Assembly (NCBI GenBank): GCA_964553015.1
Contig: CAZKJE010000002.1
Coordinates: 14,175 to 78,174 of the forward strand
DNA: 64,000 nucleotides
Direction of reading: 5' to 3'
From: an uncultured Candidatus Saccharibacteria bacterium
Lineage (GTDB): Bacteria; Patescibacteriota; Minisyncoccia; Phycocordibacterales; UBA9973
Position 1 is the stretch's first letter, and each line of letters starts with the position of its first letter. The position numbers and the translations under genes were made by a program. The notes under the pieces were generated by a model. It saw only the letters and a program-made list of their open reading frames with translations. It searched no databases and was not told the origin of the DNA. Below, one piece after another: positions 548 to 50,424 of the stretch.

Positions 548-2140
548 GTGGCTTTTGCCAAAATATACTCAGCGCAAGTAAATTTACTTACCGGAGCTAT
601 CGTAACTATAGAAGTGGATCTCTCCCGAGGCCTGCATTCTTTTAGTGTCGTCGGCCTGCCGGACAAAGCAGTCGATGAATCTAAAGACAGGGTATCGGGC
701 GCGATAAAGAATTCCGGTTTCCAGTCCCCGAAGGCAAAAAATCAAAAAATAATTGTTTCTCTTTCACCGGCCGACTTAAAGAAAGAGGGGCCATTTTTTG
801 ATTTAGGAATTGCCATCTCGTACATGAAAGCAGCGGGAGATATTAAATTTGATTCCGAGAAAAAAATATTTTTAGGCGAGCTAGGCTTGGACGGCACACT
901 TCGCCCTATCCGCGGAGCTTTGCCTTTGGCGCAGGAAGCCAGACGGAAAGGATTTGAAGAAATATATCTGCCGAAAGAAAATGCCTCCGAGGCGGCCTTG
1001 GTGGAAGGTATTAAAATTTTTGGCGCTGAAAGTTTGCAGGAAGTCGTGGAGCATATCGATGAGTATAAAAGACCCCCTCTGTCCGATAAAAATAGGACAT
1101 CTCCCCCTTCGCAGGGGGCGAGGAATAAAATTCCGGTCCAGCCGCAGACAAAAGTAAATTACAAAAAAGAAACAAAGGGCGCAGACTTTTCTGATATTCG
1201 CGGACAGGAAGGCGCCAAGCGCGGGCTCGAGATCGCGGCCGCCGGCGGGCATAATATAGCGATGTATGGCCCGCCCGGCACAGGCAAGACGATGCTGGCC
1301 CGGGCTTTTTCGCAATTGTTGCCGGATCTGCCAATTGATGAAGTACTTGAGCTCACGGGAATACATTCTGTGTCCGGCAGCACGCAAGGGGAGCTTGTGT
1401 GCTTTCCCCCGTTTCGCGCCCCGCACCACACTTCTTCTTATGTTTCTATTATCGGCGGGGGAACGTATCCAAAGCCAGGAGAGGTTACACTCGCGCATCG
1501 CGGCGTTTTATTTCTAGACGAGTTTCCGGAATTTGAGAAGAGGGTTATAGAATCTTTACGGCAGCCGCTTGAAGACAATATCGTTTCCATTTCCCGCGCC
1601 AAGGGCACAGCAGTCTTCCCTTCAAATTTTATTTTAGTGGCCGCCATGAATCCCTGCCCGTGCGGAAACGCTGGGAACAAACAAAAGGCCTGCATCTGCA
1701 AGCCGTCCGATTTAGACAGATATAAAAGGAAACTTTCCGGTCCGATTATAGACCGTATTGACCTCTGGGTTTCAGTCGGCAACGTGGATTATAAAAAACT
1801 CGGCGCAAGTGACGATGAGCGGAACGCAGAGAAAAGTGAAAAAATAAAAGATAGAGTTACCCTAGCCAGAGAAATTCAAAAAAAGAGATTTCAAAAATTT
1901 ACAAAAAAAATCAGCACAAACAGTGAAATGAATGTGAAAGACTTAGGCACGATGGCAAAACTCGATGCAAAAGTTCGCGAACTCTTAGACAACAGTGCCG
2001 AAAATCTAGGCCTGTCCGCTCGCGCCTATCACCGCGTAATAAAAATAGCCCGCACTATTGCCGACTTGGAAAATTCTGAAAACGTAGAAGCGAATCATAT
2101 CTTAGAGGCCATTCAATATAGGCCAAAAGTTAACTCATAG
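548..2140 (+). CDS. comM: YifB/ComM-family Mg-chelatase-like AAA+ ATPase (competence protein ComM)
   Basis: 530 aa, GTG start. N-terminal Lon-like domain, Walker A GPPGTGKT and C-terminal ChlI-like domain. Carries an in-frame GC-rich hairpin insert at about 1101-1123. Confidence 0.85.
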   Translation: MAFAKIYSAQVNLLTGAIVTIEVDLSRGLHSFSVVGLPDKAVDESKDRVSGAIKNSGFQSPKAKNQKIIVSLSPADLKKEGPFFDLGIAISYMKAAGDIKFDSEKKIFLGELGLDGTLRPIRGALPLAQEARRKGFEEIYLPKENASEAALVEGIKIFGAESLQEVVEHIDEYKRPPLSDKNRTSPPSQGARNKIPVQPQTKVNYKKETKGADFSDIRGQEGAKRGLEIAAAGGHNIAMYGPPGTGKTMLARAFSQLLPDLPIDEVLELTGIHSVSGSTQGELVCFPPFRAPHHTSSYVSIIGGGTYPKPGEVTLAHRGVLFLDEFPEFEKRVIESLRQPLEDNIVSISRAKGTAVFPSNFILVAAMNPCPCGNAGNKQKACICKPSDLDRYKRKLSGPIIDRIDLWVSVGNVDYKKLGASDDERNAEKSEKIKDRVTLAREIQKKRFQKFTKKISTNSEMNVKDLGTMAKLDAKVRELLDNSAENLGLSARAYHRVIKIARTIADLENSENVEANHILEAIQYRPKVNS

Positions 2141-2189: not shown

Positions 2190-2278
2190 AATTAAGTCGC
2201 AAATACCCCTACCCGGCCTCTCCCTAAAGTAGGGGGAGGAGAAAGGAGGGGGTAAATTATAAAATTAAAAACAAAGCT

Positions 2279-2506: not shown

Positions 2507-3076
2507 ATGATAAGAAATCCCCATCAGATAAAAATAGAATCTTTCTACGGAGAGAATAAGAGGATGCCGACGTATTCGGAAATGATGAAGCTCTTCGGCT
2601 ACAAATCCAAGAATGCGGTTTTTAAAGTCGTGGAGAAATTGATTGACGCAGGGCTCGTCGCCAAAGATCATCTCGGCCGGTTAGTACCCACACAATCTTT
2701 TGGCGAAGTTCCGATGCTTGGGCTGGTGACTGCCGGTTTGCCTGCAAGTGTGGAAGAAGAGCTCGCAGATACTGTGAGCTTGGACGAATTTTTAATAGAA
2801 AAGAAAGCTTTTACATATATGCTAGAGGTGGACGGGGATTCTATGATAGATGCGCACATAGAAAAGGGGGATATGGTTCTCGTCGAGAAGGCAAACCAGG
2901 CTAAAGATATGCAGATAGTCATCGCCGAAGTGGATGGCGAATTTACGATGAAATATTTTAGGCGTGATGGGAATAAATGTTGGCTCGAGCCGGCCAACAA
3001 AAACTACAAACCGATCTATCCGGAACATTCTTTAAATATAAATGCAGTGGTGAAAGCGGTGATTAGGAAATACTAA
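2507..3076 (+). CDS. lexA: LexA repressor (S24 peptidase)
   Basis: N-terminal wHTH. Ala-Gly cleavage site in VTAGLP. Ser/Lys dyad in GDSM ... FTMKYF. Strong similarity to the LexA C-terminal domain. Confidence 0.85.
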   Translation: MIRNPHQIKIESFYGENKRMPTYSEMMKLFGYKSKNAVFKVVEKLIDAGLVAKDHLGRLVPTQSFGEVPMLGLVTAGLPASVEEELADTVSLDEFLIEKKAFTYMLEVDGDSMIDAHIEKGDMVLVEKANQAKDMQIVIAEVDGEFTMKYFRRDGNKCWLEPANKNYKPIYPEHSLNINAVVKAVIRKY

Positions 3077-3091
3077 ATAAGATAGGAAATC

Positions 3092-3118
3092 AAAAAATCC
3101 CCCGAATGGGGATTTTTT
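3092..3118. terminator. bidirectional intrinsic terminator between lexA and hup
   Basis: AAAAATCCCC-GAAT-GGGGATTTTT hairpin flanked by A and T runs between two convergent genes. Confidence 0.7.
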
Positions 3119-3166
3119 GATTTCCTAATTTCTCTCGAGAGAACCCCACTTGGCGGGGCAGGAATA

Positions 3167-6275: not shown

Positions 6276-7523
6276 GTGTCTAATGAAATACGTAAAAATA
6301 TGCCAAGAAAAATGATAAGTGTAGAAGGCAACATAGTAAATAAAGATAAAGTTTTCCGCGGAAGAATTGAAATTGATCAGAGCGGAATGATAGATAAAAT
6401 CGGCGAACCGAAAGGTGACGCCGATTTTATTTTTGAGGATGAATTAATTTTTCCCGGATTCATAGATCTGCATGTGCATGCGCGGGAAGATGCAAGCCAC
6501 ACGCAAGATTACAAAGAAGATTTTATCTCCTCGGGAGTTGCGGCGATAAGCGGCGGAGTGACAGCATTTGCAGAAATGCCGAACAATCCAGTACCGCCGA
6601 TTGATGATAAAAGTTACGCAGAAAAAAAAGAATTAACTAAGAAATCTCCAGTTCCAGTTTTACTTTATGCAGGCATCGGCCCTAAGACAAAACCGCTTTC
6701 ATCAAAAGTTCCGTACAAAGTTTTTATGGGTAAATCTGTCGGCGATCTTTTTTTTACAACACTGGAAGAATTAGAATCAGTAATAAAAAATTACAAGGGA
6801 CAATACGTGAGTTTCCACTGCGAGGATCCGGAAATTCTGGAAGAAAAAACTCATGAGTTAACTCATGAGTTACAGCGCCCCAGAGAAGCTGAAATTTCCG
6901 GAATAGATTTCGCGCTCAAATTAATAGAAAAATATAATATTTTTGGAAAAATTTGTCATGTATCTACGATAGGAGGAATACAAAAAATTATTGAAGCAAA
7001 AAAAAGAGGGGTAAATGTAACAGTAGAAGTAACTCCGCATCATTTGTATTTTGCGAAAGCAAATAAAAATTTACAAGTCAATCCGCCCATACGTGATGTA
7101 GAAGATTGTGCGGCTTTAATAAAACTTTTGAAACGAGGCGATATTGATTTTCTTGCTACCGACCATGCTCCGCACACAAAAGAAGAGAAGAAAAAAGGAG
7201 TTTCAGGCATGCCGCATTTAGATACTTACGGACCGTTTATCGCATGGCTTATAAAAGAACACGGTTTTACGCAGGAAGAAATTGCGAGAGTATGCGCATA
7301 TAATCCGGGTGTTTTTTTAAATAGTTTTATGCCTGAGAAATATGGAGAAACAAAAGAAGGCTACGTTGGCTCGCTTACAGTAATAAATATGAACAAGCCA
7401 GTAAGGATAAAAAAAGAAATGCTTAAAACGAAATGCGGCTGGTCGCCTTTTCTGGGGGTGACATTTCCGGGAAGCGTTACTATGACAATAGTAAAAGGAG
7501 AAATTTATGAAAACAGAAAATAG
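6276..7523 (+). CDS. pyrC: dihydroorotase
   Basis: Amidohydrolase motifs DLHVHARE and DHAPH. GTG start preceded by the extended -10-like TGCTACTAT. Confidence 0.85.
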   Translation: MSNEIRKNMPRKMISVEGNIVNKDKVFRGRIEIDQSGMIDKIGEPKGDADFIFEDELIFPGFIDLHVHAREDASHTQDYKEDFISSGVAAISGGVTAFAEMPNNPVPPIDDKSYAEKKELTKKSPVPVLLYAGIGPKTKPLSSKVPYKVFMGKSVGDLFFTTLEELESVIKNYKGQYVSFHCEDPEILEEKTHELTHELQRPREAEISGIDFALKLIEKYNIFGKICHVSTIGGIQKIIEAKKRGVNVTVEVTPHHLYFAKANKNLQVNPPIRDVEDCAALIKLLKRGDIDFLATDHAPHTKEEKKKGVSGMPHLDTYGPFIAWLIKEHGFTQEEIARVCAYNPGVFLNSFMPEKYGETKEGYVGSLTVINMNKPVRIKKEMLKTKCGWSPFLGVTFPGSVTMTIVKGEIYENRK

Positions 7524-8565
7524 AACAGCAAAATTAATTCTGAAAGACGGTACTATTTTTGAGGCAAAAAGTTTCGGCGCTTCAAAATCTACTGCCGGCG
7601 AAGTGGTTTTTGCCACGGGAATGACCGGCTATCCCGAAGCGCTGACAGATCCATCCTTCAAGGGACAAATTTTAGTAATGACATATCCCTTGATCGGGAA
7701 TTATGGAGTTCCTAAAAAAGAAGACTGGGAATCGGACAAGATCCAAGTTTCCGGGCTTGTAGTGTGTAATTACATAGATACGCCGTCGCATCATGCAAGC
7801 GAGATGACTTTGGCCGAGTGGTTCAAAAAAGAAGGCGTGCCACTTCTTGAGATAAAAGACACAAGGCTGCTTACAGAAAAATTACGGGACGAGGGGGCAA
7901 CACTAGGCAAAATAATTATTGGAAGCAAAAATGTTAATTTTGCAGATCCGAATTTGAGAAACTTGGCTGGAGAAGTGAGTACGAAAGAAATTTATTTTAT
8001 GGGCGAGGGAAAAGATACGATTGTGCTTTTGGATTGTGGCGCCAAGAGGAATATAATTAGAAGCCTTGCAGAAAGAGGGCTTAGGGTTGCAGTAGTTCCG
8101 TGGAATACCGATGTAACCAAATTAGATTTTCAATTTAGCGCGGTAGTGATTTCAAACGGCCCCGGAGATCCAAAGAAAGTAACCGCTACTATCAATAATG
8201 TTAAAAAAATTATTGCTAAAAAAATCCCTACGCTGGGTATTTGTTTGGGAAACCAAATTTTAACTTTAGCCATGGGAGGCACAACGTATAAAATGAAATT
8301 CGGGCACCGAAGCCAGAATCAGCCAGTAGTGCAAACGGGTACAAATAAGTGTTATTTAACAACCCAAAATCATGGTTTTGCAGTTAAACAAATTCCCAAA
8401 AATTTCAGACAATGGTTTCATAATGCGAACGATAATACGAATGAGGGAGTTATTCATGAGACCCTGCCATTTATGTCTGTGCAGTTTCATCCGGAAAGTA
8501 CTCCGGGACCCGTGGACACTGATTGGGTATTTGATTATTTTTTGAAAAAAGCTGATGAAAAATAA
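7507..8565 (+). CDS. carA: carbamoyl-phosphate synthase small (glutaminase) subunit
   Basis: CPSase small-subunit N-domain plus class I GATase (GICLGNQ, HRSQNQPV, QFHPE). Confidence 0.9.
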   Translation: MKTENRTAKLILKDGTIFEAKSFGASKSTAGEVVFATGMTGYPEALTDPSFKGQILVMTYPLIGNYGVPKKEDWESDKIQVSGLVVCNYIDTPSHHASEMTLAEWFKKEGVPLLEIKDTRLLTEKLRDEGATLGKIIIGSKNVNFADPNLRNLAGEVSTKEIYFMGEGKDTIVLLDCGAKRNIIRSLAERGLRVAVVPWNTDVTKLDFQFSAVVISNGPGDPKKVTATINNVKKIIAKKIPTLGICLGNQILTLAMGGTTYKMKFGHRSQNQPVVQTGTNKCYLTTQNHGFAVKQIPKNFRQWFHNANDNTNEGVIHETLPFMSVQFHPESTPGPVDTDWVFDYFLKKADEK

Positions 8566-32390: not shown

Positions 32391-32882
32391 GTGACAGAGA
32401 AAACTATTAAAATTTATACTGACGGTTCAGCCAGAGGAAATCCGGGAAAAGCAGGCTGGGGAGCTGTTTTTCTTTTAGGCGATAAAGTTTTTGAAATGGG
32501 CGGGCGGTCCGATCACGCGACAAATAATCAGATGGAGCTCACTGCGCCAATAGAAGCGCTTAAATATTTAAAAAAATCCCCTAGGCAAGGTCTAGGGGAA
32601 AAAATTACACAGGGGAGTTCTGTGCAAATCGTGTCTGACTCAAAGTATGTTATTTTAGGTATTACCGAGTGGATCTTAAACTGGCAGAAAAATAATTGGC
32701 GAAATGCCGCAAAAAAGCCTGTTATGAATCGAGAACTTTGGGAAGAGCTGTACAAGCTTACGGAAGAATTAAAAACAACATGGGAATATGTAAAAGGCCA
32801 CAACGGCGACAAATATAATGACCGAGCAGATGAAATAGCGACAAGCTTTGCAGACAATGAGCCAGTGGAGTTGAAAAAATAA
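32391..32882 (+). CDS. rnhA: ribonuclease HI
   Basis: YTDGS...GWG and NQMEL motifs plus a C-terminal D. GTG start. Confidence 0.8.
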   Translation: MTEKTIKIYTDGSARGNPGKAGWGAVFLLGDKVFEMGGRSDHATNNQMELTAPIEALKYLKKSPRQGLGEKITQGSSVQIVSDSKYVILGITEWILNWQKNNWRNAAKKPVMNRELWEELYKLTEELKTTWEYVKGHNGDKYNDRADEIATSFADNEPVELKK

Positions 32883-40642: not shown

Positions 40643-40716
40643 TATAAAAATTTTATAATTAAATCTCGCTTTTCGGTGTAATGAGACATAACTTTATATT
40701 AACATAGATTTTTATT

Positions 40717-40849
40717 CCCCTCTTGAGGGGTGGCTCGCGTGCAAGACGGGGTGGATAATTTACCTCACCCTGCTGCCCTCTCCTGTAAAGGGGAGGGGAA
40801 AATTCATCCACCTCCCTCCGACCCATGTCGGAGTACTCCTCAAGAGGAG
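40717..40849. repeat. GC-rich hairpin cluster / miniature element related to the CCCT-loop-AGGG family
   Basis: Bounded by CCCCTC-TT-GAGGGG (40717-40730) and CTCCTC-AA-GAGGAG (40836-40849). Internal hairpins include CCCTCTCC-TGTAAAG-GGGAGGG. About 55% GC in AT-rich intergenic DNA. Confidence 0.45.
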
Positions 40850-40926
40850 AATTTTTTACTCATATACTACTCTAATCCTATAAATAAGGGTTTTTTGACT
40901 TTGCTAGCAACAAAGTGTAAAAATGC

Positions 40927-43323: not shown

Positions 43324-43998
43324 ATGGCGAGAAAACAAGATAAACAAAGCGTTTTGGCTATGCGCAAGAGAGGAATGAGCTACAGCCAGATCAAAGGGAA
43401 AATAAAAATAAGCAAAAGCACTTTGAGTGTCTGGCTTAAAGATTTACCACTCGATGAAAAACGGATAAGAGAATTAAGAGACAATAGCCCTATTCGTATT
43501 GAAAAATTCAGAAATACAATGCGAGCAAAAAAAGAGATGAGACTTTATGAGGTATATAAAAAAGTCGCAAATGATATTTGTGATCTCTCAAAAAGAGATT
43601 TATTTTTAACAGGCTTGTTCTTATATTGGGGAGAAGGCACGAAATCACAAAATTCTTTAGTTGCCCTCACAAATACAAATCCAGCCATGGTTAAGTTTTT
43701 CATACAATGGCTAAAATTGTTTGGAGTAAAAAGCAAAGATTTGAAAATTAAACTACATTTATACTCCGATATGAAAATTAAAGAAAGTCTTGATTTTTGG
43801 TCAAAAGAGCTTAATATTCCGATAAGCCAGTTTTATAAGCCGTATGTTAAGAAAAATACTCTCAAATCTATCTCGTATAAAAATGGCTTTGGAAAAGGAA
43901 CATGTAGTGTTATATTTGGGAGTAGAGATCTTTGGGAATATATAACAATGGGATTGAAATATATTTCTGAAATTAGTAATGAAAATTTCCGCCCCTAG
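43324..43998 (+). CDS. hypothetical protein with N-terminal helix-turn-helix
   Basis: N-terminus RKRGMSYSQIKGKIKISKSTLSVWLK is HTH-like. The C-terminal 150 aa are unassigned. The stop overlaps the tRNA 5' end. Confidence 0.55.
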   Translation: MARKQDKQSVLAMRKRGMSYSQIKGKIKISKSTLSVWLKDLPLDEKRIRELRDNSPIRIEKFRNTMRAKKEMRLYEVYKKVANDICDLSKRDLFLTGLFLYWGEGTKSQNSLVALTNTNPAMVKFFIQWLKLFGVKSKDLKIKLHLYSDMKIKESLDFWSKELNIPISQFYKPYVKKNTLKSISYKNGFGKGTCSVIFGSRDLWEYITMGLKYISEISNENFRP

Positions 43999-44061
43999 CT
44001 CAGTTGGTAGAGCAATCCGCTTATACCGGATCGGTCCTTGGTTCGAGTCCAAGGGGGCGGA
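43989..44061 (+). tRNA. tRNA-Ile with anticodon UAU
   Basis: 73-nt cloverleaf. Acceptor CCGCCCC/GGGGCGG, D-arm GCTC-AGTTGGTA-GAGC, anticodon arm ATCCG-CTTATAC-CGGAT with U33 and A37, variable loop CGGTC, T-arm CTTGG-TTCGAGT-CCAAG, discriminator A. CCA is not encoded. Confidence 0.75.
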
Positions 44062-44063
44062 CA

Positions 44064-47749: not shown

Positions 47750-49957
47750 TTACTCGAAGTGAAACTCTCCGGCTTTGGTGCGGACTTTTTGTTTTAGGAG
47801 AGGATATTTACTTAGTTCGGGGTCAGATTCTATCATGCTAATAGCTTCAGTTCTAGCCGCTTCTACCATTTTTATATTTTTTATAGCTTCCATGCCGAGA
47901 TCAGTGATGCCCCACTGCTTTGTACCGCCAAGCTCTCCGGCGCCTCGGAGTGTGAGATCTAGCTCTGCCAATTCAAAACCATTTTTTGCAGTCTTGAGCG
48001 CTTTAAGGCGGTCTACGGTTTTTGCGCTTTTGGCTTCAGCAAAAATATAACAATATGCCTGATGCGAACTTCGGATCACCCGTCCGCGGAGCTGATGCAA
48101 TTGGGCCAATCCAAAACGCTCCGCACCTTCTATGATAATTATTGTCGCATTTGGAACATTCACTCCGACTTCTACCACGGACGTAGCGCATAAGATATGT
48201 ATCTTGCCTTCGGTAAATTCCTGCATTACCTCTTCTTTTTTTTCTCTGCTCATCTTGGAATGAAGTACGCCTATTTCATACTCTTTGAACACTCGCTCTT
48301 TTAATATTTTAGCTTCAGCTACGGCAGATTTTACATTTAAAGCCATTTCTTTTTCAGGATCAGGCTCAAAAATTCGCGGGCAGATGACGTAGAGCTGTCT
48401 ACCGGCCTCCAATTCTTTTCTGATTGCTTCGTAAGTGTTAGTCCTCTTGTCCGGAGTAATAATCTCTGTAATTATTTGTTTTCTTCCTACCGGCATTTCG
48501 TCTAAAAGCGACAGATCCAAATCTCCGTATATCGTGAGCGCGAGCGTGCGGGGGATAGGAGTTGCGGTCATGGATAGCAGGTGCGGAGCGATGTTATCTT
48601 TGCGCACTAACTTTCTTCTTTGTGCTGTGCCGAAGCGATGCTGTTCGTCTATCACCACAAGTGCAAGATTTTTAAATTTAACAGTTTTTTGAATGAGCGC
48701 ATGTGTACCGATAAGTATAGGTATCTCGCCGTTTCCGATCCATTTCAAAAGTTGTGCTCGGGAAATTGTTGTCCAGCTTGCCCCGTCCTTGGCGGGACCG
48801 ATTGTTTTTGATGGAAATTTTCTGCAGCCACTTCCAGTGATCAAGCCTATGTTTATCGGCAAATGCTTGAAATATTCTATGAAAGATTCAAAATGTTGCG
48901 TTGCTAATATTTCTGTCGGCGCCATGTATGCCACTTGCAAATTACCAAAATTTTGTGGTTTACCCTGGGTGTAATCGAAGGGCCTTTGCTGTACTGTCAC
49001 ATAGCTTGCAGTCGCAGCTACAGCAGTTTTACCGGAGCCGACATCGCCTTCGAGTAATCGCGACATCGGAAAATTCTTTGCCAGATCAGCAAGTATCGTT
49101 GCGATGGATTTTTCTTGTGATTTTGTCGGTTTAAAAGGGAAGCGCTTCAGAAATTCTTCTGCACTTTTCTTTTCAGGTTTTATTTGAAAAGATTTATTTT
49201 TTCTATATTCAAATTTATCATGCTGGCGTTCCAGCTGAATACAGAATACTTCTTCAAAAGCGAATCGTTTGCGTGCCGACTGCGCATCGGCTTTATTTTT
49301 CGGTTTGTGTATCCAAATAAGCGCGGTTTTCAGAGTAGGCAAATGATATTTTTTTAAAATTTCGGCCGGAATATAATCTTCAATATTATCCAAAGTTTTT
49401 TCTTTAAATATTTTTTCAATTGCGTGGTAAAACCATTTGGAAGTGATACCTCGCGTCTCCGCATAAATTGGATAAGACAGACCCTCCCCCAACCCCTCCC
49501 TTCGCAGGGCGGGGCTTTTAAATAATGTGTCGTGCGAATCTATCGGCATATTCGGCAATTTTTCAAATTCCGGATTAGCAAGATACATGCCATTTTTGCC
49601 TTGCGTGACTTTGCCCGTCAGCTTCACATTTTCGCCGTCATGGATCATTTTTGCCAAGTAAGTCTGATTGAACCATGTGATTTTTATTTTTCCAGATAAA
49701 TCTTCTATTTCGCCTTCGCCCATGGGCATTTTTGAACGAAATCCTTTTTTGGTTTTCAATTTTGAAACTTTGCCATATACAGTAGCCATATCTCCGGCAA
49801 CTAATTCAGCAATATTCTTTACCTCGCTGATATCGCTGTAGCGGACAGGGAAGTGAAACAAGAGATCAGCCACAGAAAAAATCTTGAGCTTATGCAAAGC
49901 CCTTTTCTGGCTTTCATCCAGCCTGAATTTTAGTTCAAGCTTATCGCTTAAATTCAT
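47750..49957 (-). CDS. recG: ATP-dependent DNA helicase RecG
   Basis: Wedge domain plus helicase motifs (GDVGSGKT, DEQHRFG). Start refined to MNLSDKLELKF, since the longer ORF overlaps pilA. Carries an in-frame GC-rich hairpin insert at 49481-49515. Confidence 0.85.
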   Translation of the reverse strand: MNLSDKLELKFRLDESQKRALHKLKIFSVADLLFHFPVRYSDISEVKNIAELVAGDMATVYGKVSKLKTKKGFRSKMPMGEGEIEDLSGKIKITWFNQTYLAKMIHDGENVKLTGKVTQGKNGMYLANPEFEKLPNMPIDSHDTLFKSPALRREGLGEGLSYPIYAETRGITSKWFYHAIEKIFKEKTLDNIEDYIPAEILKKYHLPTLKTALIWIHKPKNKADAQSARKRFAFEEVFCIQLERQHDKFEYRKNKSFQIKPEKKSAEEFLKRFPFKPTKSQEKSIATILADLAKNFPMSRLLEGDVGSGKTAVAATASYVTVQQRPFDYTQGKPQNFGNLQVAYMAPTEILATQHFESFIEYFKHLPINIGLITGSGCRKFPSKTIGPAKDGASWTTISRAQLLKWIGNGEIPILIGTHALIQKTVKFKNLALVVIDEQHRFGTAQRRKLVRKDNIAPHLLSMTATPIPRTLALTIYGDLDLSLLDEMPVGRKQIITEIITPDKRTNTYEAIRKELEAGRQLYVICPRIFEPDPEKEMALNVKSAVAEAKILKERVFKEYEIGVLHSKMSREKKEEVMQEFTEGKIHILCATSVVEVGVNVPNATIIIIEGAERFGLAQLHQLRGRVIRSSHQAYCYIFAEAKSAKTVDRLKALKTAKNGFELAELDLTLRGAGELGGTKQWGITDLGMEAIKNIKMVEAARTEAISMIESDPELSKYPLLKQKVRTKAGEFHFE

Positions 49958-49971
49958 AAAACCATTATACC

Positions 49972-50424
49972 CTATCTGGTCAGTGTAATAGATTGGCCAA
50001 GTTCCGCATTTGGAGCGGCTATAGTGTAGCGGCCATTTGAATCCACTAATACAGTGTATTGCGTGTCTGCCGCTGTTCCCGCAGTCAATCCAGCTCCGCC
50101 GGGGTCCATAGGAATTACTGAAGGAATATATGTAGGTACCAGGCAGCTCAAGTCCATATTCCCTGCGCCGGTTCCAATATTTTCGGCAGTGGAAGTTATG
50201 GTAACGCCGGCACAAGTAAATATACCTTTGTTATCGGCAAGATTTTGCCCGATTGCATTTAAAATAGTCTCGACGTTGCTAATGCGTTGGCTGTTTCTCG
50301 CCTGCGCAAACTGACGAGCGGGATTTATAGCTACTACCACGATAGATGCCAATATCGCGATAATACCGATCACAACTAAAATTTCAATAAGCGTGAAACC
50401 TCTTTTCCTCGCAACTTTTTTCAT
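49972..50424 (-). CDS. pilA: type IV major pilin (PilA-like)
   Basis: Canonical prepilin leader MKKVARKRG followed by FTLIEILVVIGIIAILA. 150 aa. Confidence 0.85.
   Translation of the reverse strand: MKKVARKRGFTLIEILVVIGIIAILASIVVVAINPARQFAQARNSQRISNVETILNAIGQNLADNKGIFTCAGVTITSTAENIGTGAGNMDLSCLVPTYIPSVIPMDPGGAGLTAGTAADTQYTVLVDSNGRYTIAAPNAELGQSITLTR

Follow-up and report, generated by a model that had tools for sequence, protein, structure and literature searches.

The Rickettsia palindromic elements (RPEs) are dispersed repeats of about 100-150 bp, many copies of which lie in frame within housekeeping genes and are translated into additional peptide stretches where the protein fold allows it; they also occur in non-coding DNA and have no known transposase (PMC10969869). 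The GC clusters of yeast and other fungal mitochondria are short GC-rich palindromes in a genome of lower GC content. They are regarded as transposable, are mostly intergenic and are known to merge and nest, with occasional in-frame insertions in var1 and with AG/TAG terminal repeats that are read as target duplications; coding insertions are rare, and translation bypasses those of Magnusiomyces (PMC8811140). Repetitive extragenic palindromes (REPs) and their doublets (REPINs) are imperfect GC-rich palindromes of 20-60 nt whose doublets form longer hairpins and which are non-autonomous and persist in lineages (PMC3116915, PMC3337134). [quoted passage not shown] Here we describe GC-rich hairpins dispersed over a 64,000-nt stretch of bacterial DNA (contig CAZKJE010000002.1, positions 14,175 to 78,174; the whole stretch is called the window below). 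By its CarB, RecG and ComM orthologues this DNA belongs to a Paceibacteria/Nomurabacteria-like member of the Patescibacteria, or Candidate Phyla Radiation (CPR). With a probability of about 0.8, we read the hairpins as copies from a set of related families of palindromic mobile elements, very small and non-autonomous, in Paceibacteria/Nomurabacteria-type Patescibacteria.

An earlier reading of the window (the original prediction) had proposed a dispersed family of GC-rich hairpins with one near-identical core, several of them in frame within conserved genes of an AT-rich region. All of the sequences quoted in it were found at their coordinates, and comparisons with orthologues and sister loci confirmed a dispersed GC-rich hairpin family with several in-frame copies in conserved genes. 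The window is only moderately AT-rich (GC content about 41-42%), and the single core gave way to sub-families that are related to one another: type A is a nested hairpin of 51 nt, type B measures about 34-47 nt, type C is a double hairpin of about 66 nt and type F measures about 97 nt, with a size range of 34-97 nt across families. The DNA compared consists of the window and 83 related loci, 1.45 Mb in total, of which L001 and L003 are the nearest sister loci. R1 denotes the covariance model for types A and B. The units follow a common plan: a pyrimidine arm rich in C, a short loop and then a G-rich purine arm that complements the first. Often another, outer stem (ACCCCYxCC ... GGxGGGGT) encloses this unit, or it has a second hairpin as its partner. 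The Rfam matches in the window are a tmRNA and tRNA and nothing more, and a direct-repeat finder returned low-complexity families only.

The complete type A element of the window (2204-2254, + strand) is a non-coding nested hairpin of 51 nt, TACCCCTACCCGG-CCTCTCCCT-AAAGT-AGGGGGAGG-AGAAAGGAGGGGGTA, with an R1 score of 59 bits. It takes in the intergenic hairpin at 2217-2239 of the original prediction and sits between a promoter (2161-2189) and a small ORF/lexA-like operon. The element is missing in sister L001, and L003 has an unrelated palindrome at this place. The type A consensus, TACCCCYACCCRR-CCTCCCCCT-ACA(K)T-AGGGGGAGG-AGNRAGGAGGGGGTA, has terminal inverted repeats of the kind that define MITEs (TACCCCYACC ... 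GGAGGGGGTA), and the TA found at either end is compatible both with a duplication and with a part of the repeat. A scan of metagenome contigs with the type A core returned 41 contigs; together with the genome loci, these give 34 distinct sites at which the element has sharp ends and unrelated flanks. Neither type A nor type F copies were found in scans of viral contigs. The 5' untranslated region (5'UTR) site downstream of the same promoter carries copies in the window, L019, L047 and L090.

At twenty of the 34 type A sites the element clearly lies within a long open frame, and every one of these copies is oriented in sense. Most of the coding copies are 51 nt long, or 17 codons, and are read in one phase as YPYP(T/A)SPYSRGR(S/R)(K/E)EGV. 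Among the positions hit in host proteins are two different ones in RNase HI, the domain linker of CarA and the CarA C-terminus; the peptides predicted to be encoded by elements in CarA, RNase HI or trigger factor (Tig) include YPYPTSPYSRGR and PSPSGKAGEE. Two frames free of stops are also available on the other strand of the coding type A copies, and stop codons alone therefore do not account for the 20:0 sense bias. With the number of independent sites estimated at about 15, the bias has p = 6e-5.

The promoter at 2161-2189 is itself near-consensus (TTGACA-17-TATACT), and its spacer contains a palindrome (2166-2183, AGTGAAC-GCTC-GTTCACT) that resembles the GAAC-N4-GTTC LexA (Cheo) box. It stands upstream of the small ORF and of a Peptidase_S24 (LexA-like) gene at 2507-3076, and is kept in L001, L003, L019, L047 and L090.

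The cleanest insertion event is found in the spacer upstream of ftsH, where the predicted intergenic cluster at 40717-40849 resolves into a type F element with a second unit nested inside it. The type F element (40711-40853, + strand; about 97 nt made up of 40711-40755 and 40799-40853) is a long composite hairpin with terminal inverted repeats TTCCCCTCTTGAGGGGT ... ACTCCTCAAGAGGAGAA and a fold energy of -70.4 kcal/mol (z = -6.0), and the cluster has no match in Rfam. A second copy, about 95% identical, lies between unrelated flanks in L025, between rplB and rpsS; the CarB proteins of the two genomes are about 77% identical. Aligned with the L025 copy, the nested unit (40756-40798, + strand; TAATTT-ACCTCACCC-TGCTG-CCCTCTCC-TGTAAA-GGGGAGGGG), which has the same C-arm/G-arm order, corresponds to an exact gap of 43 nt in the type F apical loop. 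The bases that flank it are intact, and this alignment reveals no obvious target duplication.

Type B (consensus GACCCYTCCCCAA-CCCTCCCC-TTNNCA-GGGGAGGG) shares its 5' arm and inner hairpin with type A, and the consensus sequences of the two begin with TACCCC or GACCCC. The 3' arm of type B is present in L014 and missing in the carB and recG copies of the window. These three copies align over about 35 nt, which extends far past the 12-mer CCCTTCGCAGGG emphasised in the original prediction and includes the 5' arm outside the hairpin. The carB copy (9413-9446, + strand; R1 44 bits) lies in frame and in sense in a beta-turn of CarB, with the hairpin CCTCCCCT-TGGC-AGGGGAGG at 9425-9444, and encodes ..SPNPPLGRGGA... 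Its absence from E. coli CarB, as claimed earlier, is borne out by a gap of 8 residues, and exactly 10 residues are extra relative to human CPS1 (between NPTS and LDY). A uniform loop of 12 residues occurs in 80 of the 119 close orthologues, including the four nearest (82-88% identity), and varied longer loops occur in 37; the loop of the window has 18 residues. Deleting 18 nt from the window carB restores, in the DNA alignment, the N-P-x-x-x-N-G-x-L-D of L001 and L003. An AlphaFold model of CarB residues 1-420 places the insert, at low confidence (pLDDT 51), in a coil between strands 278-284 and 301-308.

The recG copy (49479-49515, + strand, antisense to recG; R1 50.5 bits) consists of a 5' arm, GACCCTCCCCCAA, and the hairpin CCCCTCCC-TTCGCA-GGGCGGGG. 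The encoded segment, SPALRREGLGEGL, falls in a loop of RecG that immediately precedes, on the N-terminal side, the conserved PIYxETRG block, as located relative to 1gm5. Of the 24 nearest orthologues, 21 keep this loop in its native K-x4-N-x-GFSY form, in agreement with the predicted insertion. The recG ORF (47750-50215, - strand) is 821 amino acids (aa) long from a TTG start at 50215. The identical database protein has 735 aa, so this ORF is probably over-extended, with the start near 49957.

The same CarB loop is occupied by unrelated, strong, in-frame palindromes in other Patescibacteria. A 72-nt palindrome with a dG of -58 was observed in the CarB loop of L043 (10838-10945), AT-rich palindromes occur there in Microgenomates-like genomes (L069 and L075), and the carB loops of L065 and L071 likewise hold strong unrelated palindromes. 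A further group, type D, was found at the carA/carB junction of L006, L034 and L047. In a close relative (the JGI contig of P0243, whose ComM is 91% identical), clpP adjoins tig directly; the pyrC-like/carA/carB/pyrB block, present at 6276-12720 in the window and in L001 and L003, is therefore missing from that place in the P0243 relative.

Two interdomain linkers of the window contain element-derived segments. In tig, a type C double hairpin (13250-13320, - strand; hairpins at 13261-13279 and 13282-13302) encodes ATPPQTPPQEGGAPSPSGKAGEE, and the type C arms, ACCTCAYCCCC ... GGGGTGAGGT, enclose this double hairpin, which measures about 66 nt. In the window, the Tig linker that joins the N- and C-terminal domains has 32 aa, all of them element-encoded, relative to a base state of about 20 aa. 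The tandem hairpins predicted here proved to be a double hairpin that is missing from tig of both L001 and L003. Type C homologues were found in carB, tig and a third gene of L006 and in tig of L034 and L022, with a constant coding sense, and encode ..P(L/S)PxGEGAPSPSGKAG(D/E)E. The trigger factor (12722-13810, - strand, 362 aa) has Trigger_N and Trigger_C domains and no peptidyl-prolyl isomerase (PPIase) domain, as in its relatives, and the hairpin-bearing linker occupies the place where the PPIase domain would be. A perfect 15-bp palindrome was observed in the Tig linker of L050.

In ComM, the linker between the Lon-like and AAA+ domains contains an element-derived segment (1069-1123, + strand) that encodes KRPPLSDKNRTSPPSQGAR. 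Its hairpin, CCCCCT-TCGC-AGGGGG at 1103-1118, follows an arm rich in C (GACCCCCTC) and a small hairpin of AT-rich sequence (TGTCC-GATAAAAATA-GGACA), and R1 matches it weakly at 1099-1126 (18.7 bits, E 0.005). The claim of an insertion stands in that the hairpin-encoded PPSQGA is an alignment gap relative to the solved ComM 8rxd, and in that, of two orthologues that are each 91% identical, P0242 carries the insert and P0243 lacks it. It is not unique to this genome, as the 41-aa form of the window is common to about 13 species, the base state of the linker being about 30 aa. Elsewhere, the ComM linker holds at least six other insert families.

One recurrent insert family, ..PARNAS(S/G)IA(S/D)AGG.. 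or ..KPARPHDGSGAGG.., occurs in frame in four different host proteins: in the comM linker of L001, the tig linker of L013, the RecG protein P0194 and the CarB protein P0111. Its DNA also forms a hairpin, e.g. CCTGCCCGCAATGCTTC.AGCATAGCT.GTGCAGGCGGG. Since unrelated palindromes share the CarB loop and the Tig linker, in-frame hairpin inserts at permissive sites are general in these genomes, and the C-arm/G-arm families are one prominent case of them.

Comparison with orthologues identified lineage-specific indels at carB, recG and tig, where the original prediction expected them, but as loops that are partly replaced and not as simple additions. The net gain is +18 nt for an element of at least 33 nt in carB, +12 for about 35 in recG and +36 for about 66 in tig. 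Because these gains fall 12-30 nt below the element length, native residues were probably lost in the coding loops. That the sites hit are permissive is borne out by the inserts being gaps relative to solved CPS1/CarB, ComM and RNase HI.

Chance recurrence was assessed with 100 dinucleotide shuffles. The 12-mer CCCTTCGCAGGG has three copies in the window (1105, 12198 and 49498), as the original prediction counted, and none in the shuffles. Simple counts of C-tracts and G-tracts in the window are not enriched (86 vs 82.6 +/- 8.5), and only paired or clustered tract sites stand out. Generic GC-hairpin counts in the window were noisy and likewise not enriched, and a test of arm polarity was used in their place, in which perfect hairpins were counted that have a stem of at least 6, a C-rich 5' arm made up of pyrimidines only and, as its complement, a G-rich 3' arm of purines. 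Four such C-arm-first hairpins were observed in the window vs 0.2 in shuffles. Over the window and the related loci, C-arm-first and G-arm-first hairpins number 50:4 (binomial p = 3.8e-11). The G-arm-first class is a natural control because the C-arm-first polarity is identical on either strand of a palindrome; the asymmetry is predicted by common descent of a family and is not expected from composition or from local palindrome formation. Perfect hairpins with a stem of at least 7 bp, whatever their composition, are about twice as frequent in the window as in shuffles (58 vs 26.6 +/- 4.0).

The inner stem is paired to 98.7% across 51 copies. Changes on both sides were found at 10 stem pairs, vs 3.2 +/- 1.4 in shuffles (0/500 reach the observed value) and 2-7 in slid controls, although this test leans towards structure because the alignment was fitted to the model. 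Loop sequences are uniform per genome (TT(C/G)GCA three times in the window, TTAGCA twice in L020 and TTATCA twice in L019), which is the outcome that amplification inside one genome would give. In the window, R1 finds the three flanked copies strongly and comM, tig and the 40.7-kb cluster weakly, with nothing further convincing. Among the related loci it matches only a subset of the Paceibacteria loci, and no match was found in the nearest sisters or in the distant Microgenomates-like loci.

These hairpins are discrete units at many unrelated sites, present or absent between relatives, exactly nested in one case, with the hairpin kept up and with the type A copies in coding DNA oriented strictly in sense. 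If they are mobile, copies would land genome-wide, and those that survive within genes would be the ones that keep the frame, lack stops, lie in sense and fall at a permissive position such as a surface beta-turn, an interdomain linker or a protein terminus, where they would be translated as short Pro/Ser...Gly/Arg/Glu coils. Insertion would be clean at first, and in coding loops native residues would then be trimmed, either at insertion or later through selection on loop length. As the clean event entered a hairpin loop without a target duplication and the copies show a strand bias, the mobilising enzyme might be a trans-acting, single-strand or hairpin-specific one of the HUH/Y1 type (IS200/IS605 or RAYT-like, after the REP-associated tyrosine transposases), a guess that we hold to be rather doubtful. 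All 12 flanked A/B copies in the model lie on the carB strand, two of them inside opposite-strand genes; the sole exception to this strand is another flanked copy, L019 16778 (12/13). The short loci have too weak a GC skew to relate the copies to the direction of replication, and orientation relative to the majority coding strand does not separate transcription from replication.

A wider and quite speculative reading is that Paceibacteria-type CPR harbour unrecognised ultra-small (34-66 nt) hairpin transposable elements that enter single-stranded or hairpin-loop DNA cleanly and with no target duplication, and that in hundreds of species systematically remodel the surface loops and the linkers of essential proteins, with the sense orientation arising from a transcription- or replication-coupled step and not only from selection on the peptide. 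If the targeting of single-stranded or hairpin-loop DNA holds, earlier insertions would be hot spots, which would explain the recurrent hits and the nesting.

Several observations weigh against mobility. Pfam and NCBIfam scans of the ORFs of the window, 64 kb of the genome, found neither a transposase nor an HUH nuclease or integrase; the window revealed no autonomous parent element; and neither a target-site duplication nor a conserved target sequence could be established. Elements in coding loops replace part of the native sequence, so that most of the coding 'insertions' are not clean. The ComM linker, 5'UTR and RNase H sites are common to several species, and such shared sites could have been inherited vertically from long ago or have spread through homologous recombination instead of repeated transposition. 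The sub-family assignments are also based on few copies.

The explanation that dispenses with copying holds that the hairpins formed in place, by template switching that perfects quasi-palindromes or by slippage, together with convergent selection for flexible Pro/Gly-rich loops. It would account for inserts in hypervariable loops and linkers with frequent indels, for the small net length changes with partial replacement of native sequence, and for the twofold excess of perfect hairpins of at least 7 bp in the window (58 vs 26.6). It does not account for near-identical, sharp-ended 51-nt units at 34 unrelated coding and non-coding sites, for the stretch of about 35 nt, with the 5' arm outside the hairpin, over which the copies of carB, recG and L014 align, or for a 97-nt element that is 95% identical in different contexts of genomes with about 77% identical CarB; the 50:4 polarity is also unexpected from local palindrome formation. 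Formation in place is thus very unlikely, being largely refuted by the shared, sharply bounded units. Still less credible is that these are ordinary Rho-independent terminators or generic GC-rich stem-loops that recur by chance or composition. T-runs do follow the type F 3' end and, on the antisense side, the rnhA hairpin (32577-32599), the overall C-tract and G-tract counts are not enriched, and the hpA hairpin motif is widespread in unrelated high-GC viral contigs. But the comM, type A, carB and tig hairpins have no T-tracts and were not called in a terminator scan, most copies are intragenic, and the 12-mer and the hairpins lie far above the shuffle expectation. The terminator reading was accordingly rejected for the main copies, and only the antisense strand of the rnhA hairpin and the type F 3' end qualify.

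It could also be argued that the elements are not selfish DNA but selected functional motifs, acting as RNA or DNA hairpins in mRNA stability, in ribosome pausing at domain boundaries that would assist co-translational folding, in binding of host proteins or as a DNA-uptake signal for the competence machinery of the window, and spread mainly by recombination and biased uptake; this would be compatible with mobility. All of the 20 coding type A copies being in sense despite two stop-free frames on the other strand, the compensatory changes that preserve the hairpin, the conservation of the ComM linker and of the 5'UTR site (window, L019, L047, L090) across species, the many copies exactly at domain linkers (Tig, ComM, CarA) and the comEC, comM and type IV pilus genes encoded in the window can all be cited for a function. 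We nevertheless consider this unlikely, as the nearest sisters lack elements at the same sites, the contexts are arbitrary and include nesting inside another element, and unrelated palindromes fill these loops in other lineages, a pattern more in keeping with tolerance than with a specific function. The uptake signal is further weakened in that known uptake sequences are motifs of 9-12 nt that arise by point mutation, not insertions of 34-97 nt. Copies of small mobile elements therefore remain our preferred explanation of the hairpins.

An in-gene insert beyond those listed in the original prediction was found in rnhA (32577-32599, + strand), where the hairpin TCCCCTAG-GCAAGGT-CTAGGGGA is in frame (SPRQGLGE..) and forms part of a 12-residue insertion relative to the solved RNase HI structures 3h08 and 1f21. 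It is a candidate for a further member or a separate family; it is terminator-like on the antisense strand, and the same RNase H loop carries type A in L086, L096, L109, L092 and L123. The pyrB occurrence of the 12-mer CCCTTCGCAGGG (12198-12209, + strand), which had been counted as a family copy, was dropped. It encodes H-P-S-Q-G, a native motif of aspartate carbamoyltransferase (HPxQ), and the sister loci conserve HPSQGLLD without a change in length (DNA CATCCTTCGCAGGGA in L001 and CACCCGTCACAAGGC in L003); R1 gives it 9 bits with E 4. A 10-bp palindrome in the pyrC-like gene (6848-6871) was rejected as a THEL-THEL tandem repeat of the same length in the sisters.

Some observations stand apart from these families. 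The hpA matches in high-GC viral contigs were set aside as a separate, mostly intergenic family. In IMG/VR viral contigs (L125-L198, 50-68% GC) they make up a coherent and apparently undescribed repeat with 77 distinct sites and at most 4 copies per contig, of the form (C-rich)AAAA-GCCTTCCCC-NNN-GGGGAAGGTG-[variable GC hairpin]-CGGATGAGGTCC. This viral repeat shares the hpA hairpin and a ..GGATGAGGT arm with type C of the window, corresponds to no Rfam family and has no orientation bias. Type B-like hairpins, AACCCTCCCCTT(T/C)GCAGGGGAGGG with a TACCCC 5' flank, were observed in two viral contigs of about 50% GC from isolate genomes (L199 11830-11853 and L200 228-251); these suggest that C-arm/G-arm elements also occur outside Patescibacteria. 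The window further contains a bidirectional terminator with a 20-bp stem (3083-3127) and a hairpin with a 15-bp stem (13847-13880). The only similarity of the ORF at 43324-43998 is a sub-threshold transposase-type helix-turn-helix (HTH_23/HTH_28), and its end overlaps a tRNA-Ile (anticodon TAT) at 43989-44062. The isoleucyl-tRNA synthetase (56948-60448, 1166 aa) carries a His_Phos_1 domain at about residues 524-611 inside its catalytic domain, an architecture also on record for the orthologue of a close relative.

In-gene selfish palindromes have so far been a curiosity of Rickettsia and fungal mitochondria, and their movement was never settled; the CPR would be a third, very large and poorly understood group with such behaviour. 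The units are small, one of them exactly 17 codons, and the genomes many, which allows statistics on insertion sites, empty sites and host tolerance. Lineage-specific indels in CarB, RecG, RNase H and trigger factor can disturb alignments, phylogenies and gene calling in metagenome-assembled CPR genomes, and the elements mark enzyme loops that tolerate 6-25 extra residues. The open-access papers and preprints searched hold no description of such elements in CPR/Patescibacteria, in line with the earlier remark that RPE-like behaviour is not established for such genomes, and the elements are apparently undescribed for CPR bacteria; a paper on a 'repeat' in Gracilibacteria was set aside as it concerns an unrelated tandem PTD repeat.

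Compared with the known systems, the elements resemble MITEs in the terminal inverted repeats of types A and F, and the TA ends of type A recall TA-targeting elements. MITEs are usually 100-400 bp long, derived from insertion sequences (IS) and accompanied by target-site duplications, whereas here the whole unit is the hairpin, the one clean insertion lacks a duplication and the window shows no parent IS. The nested architecture of type A is like that of REP doublets. REPs are defined by their extragenic position, a GTAG-type head (GTAG or GTGG) and a single-copy RAYT gene flanked by REPs; about 20 of the 34 type A sites and most copies in the window are intragenic, the head is TACCCC or GACCCC, and no RAYT-type Y1/HUH transposase was found by Pfam and NCBIfam among the ORFs of this 64 kb of the genome.

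The likeness to RPEs drawn in the original prediction holds for behaviour (in frame, dispersed and tolerated) and not for membership. As with RPEs, dispersed palindromes lie in frame in CarB, RecG, Tig, ComM, CarA, RNase HI and other proteins, but the published descriptions of RPEs set them apart by length, host and arm composition: the units here are 34-97 nt, 2-4 times shorter, have poly-C/poly-G arms and reside in Patescibacteria and not in Alphaproteobacteria. The order of pyrimidine and then purine arms, the all-sense coding copies of type A and the several unrelated families per protein loop are further differences. Closest in size and composition are the mitochondrial GC clusters, which also share in-frame copies, merging, nesting and fast-evolving loops. 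The elements described here differ from them in being bacterial and not organellar, in showing no AG/TAG duplications and no shared sequence, and in affecting dozens of essential genes, for which translation straight through the insert is the simplest reading.

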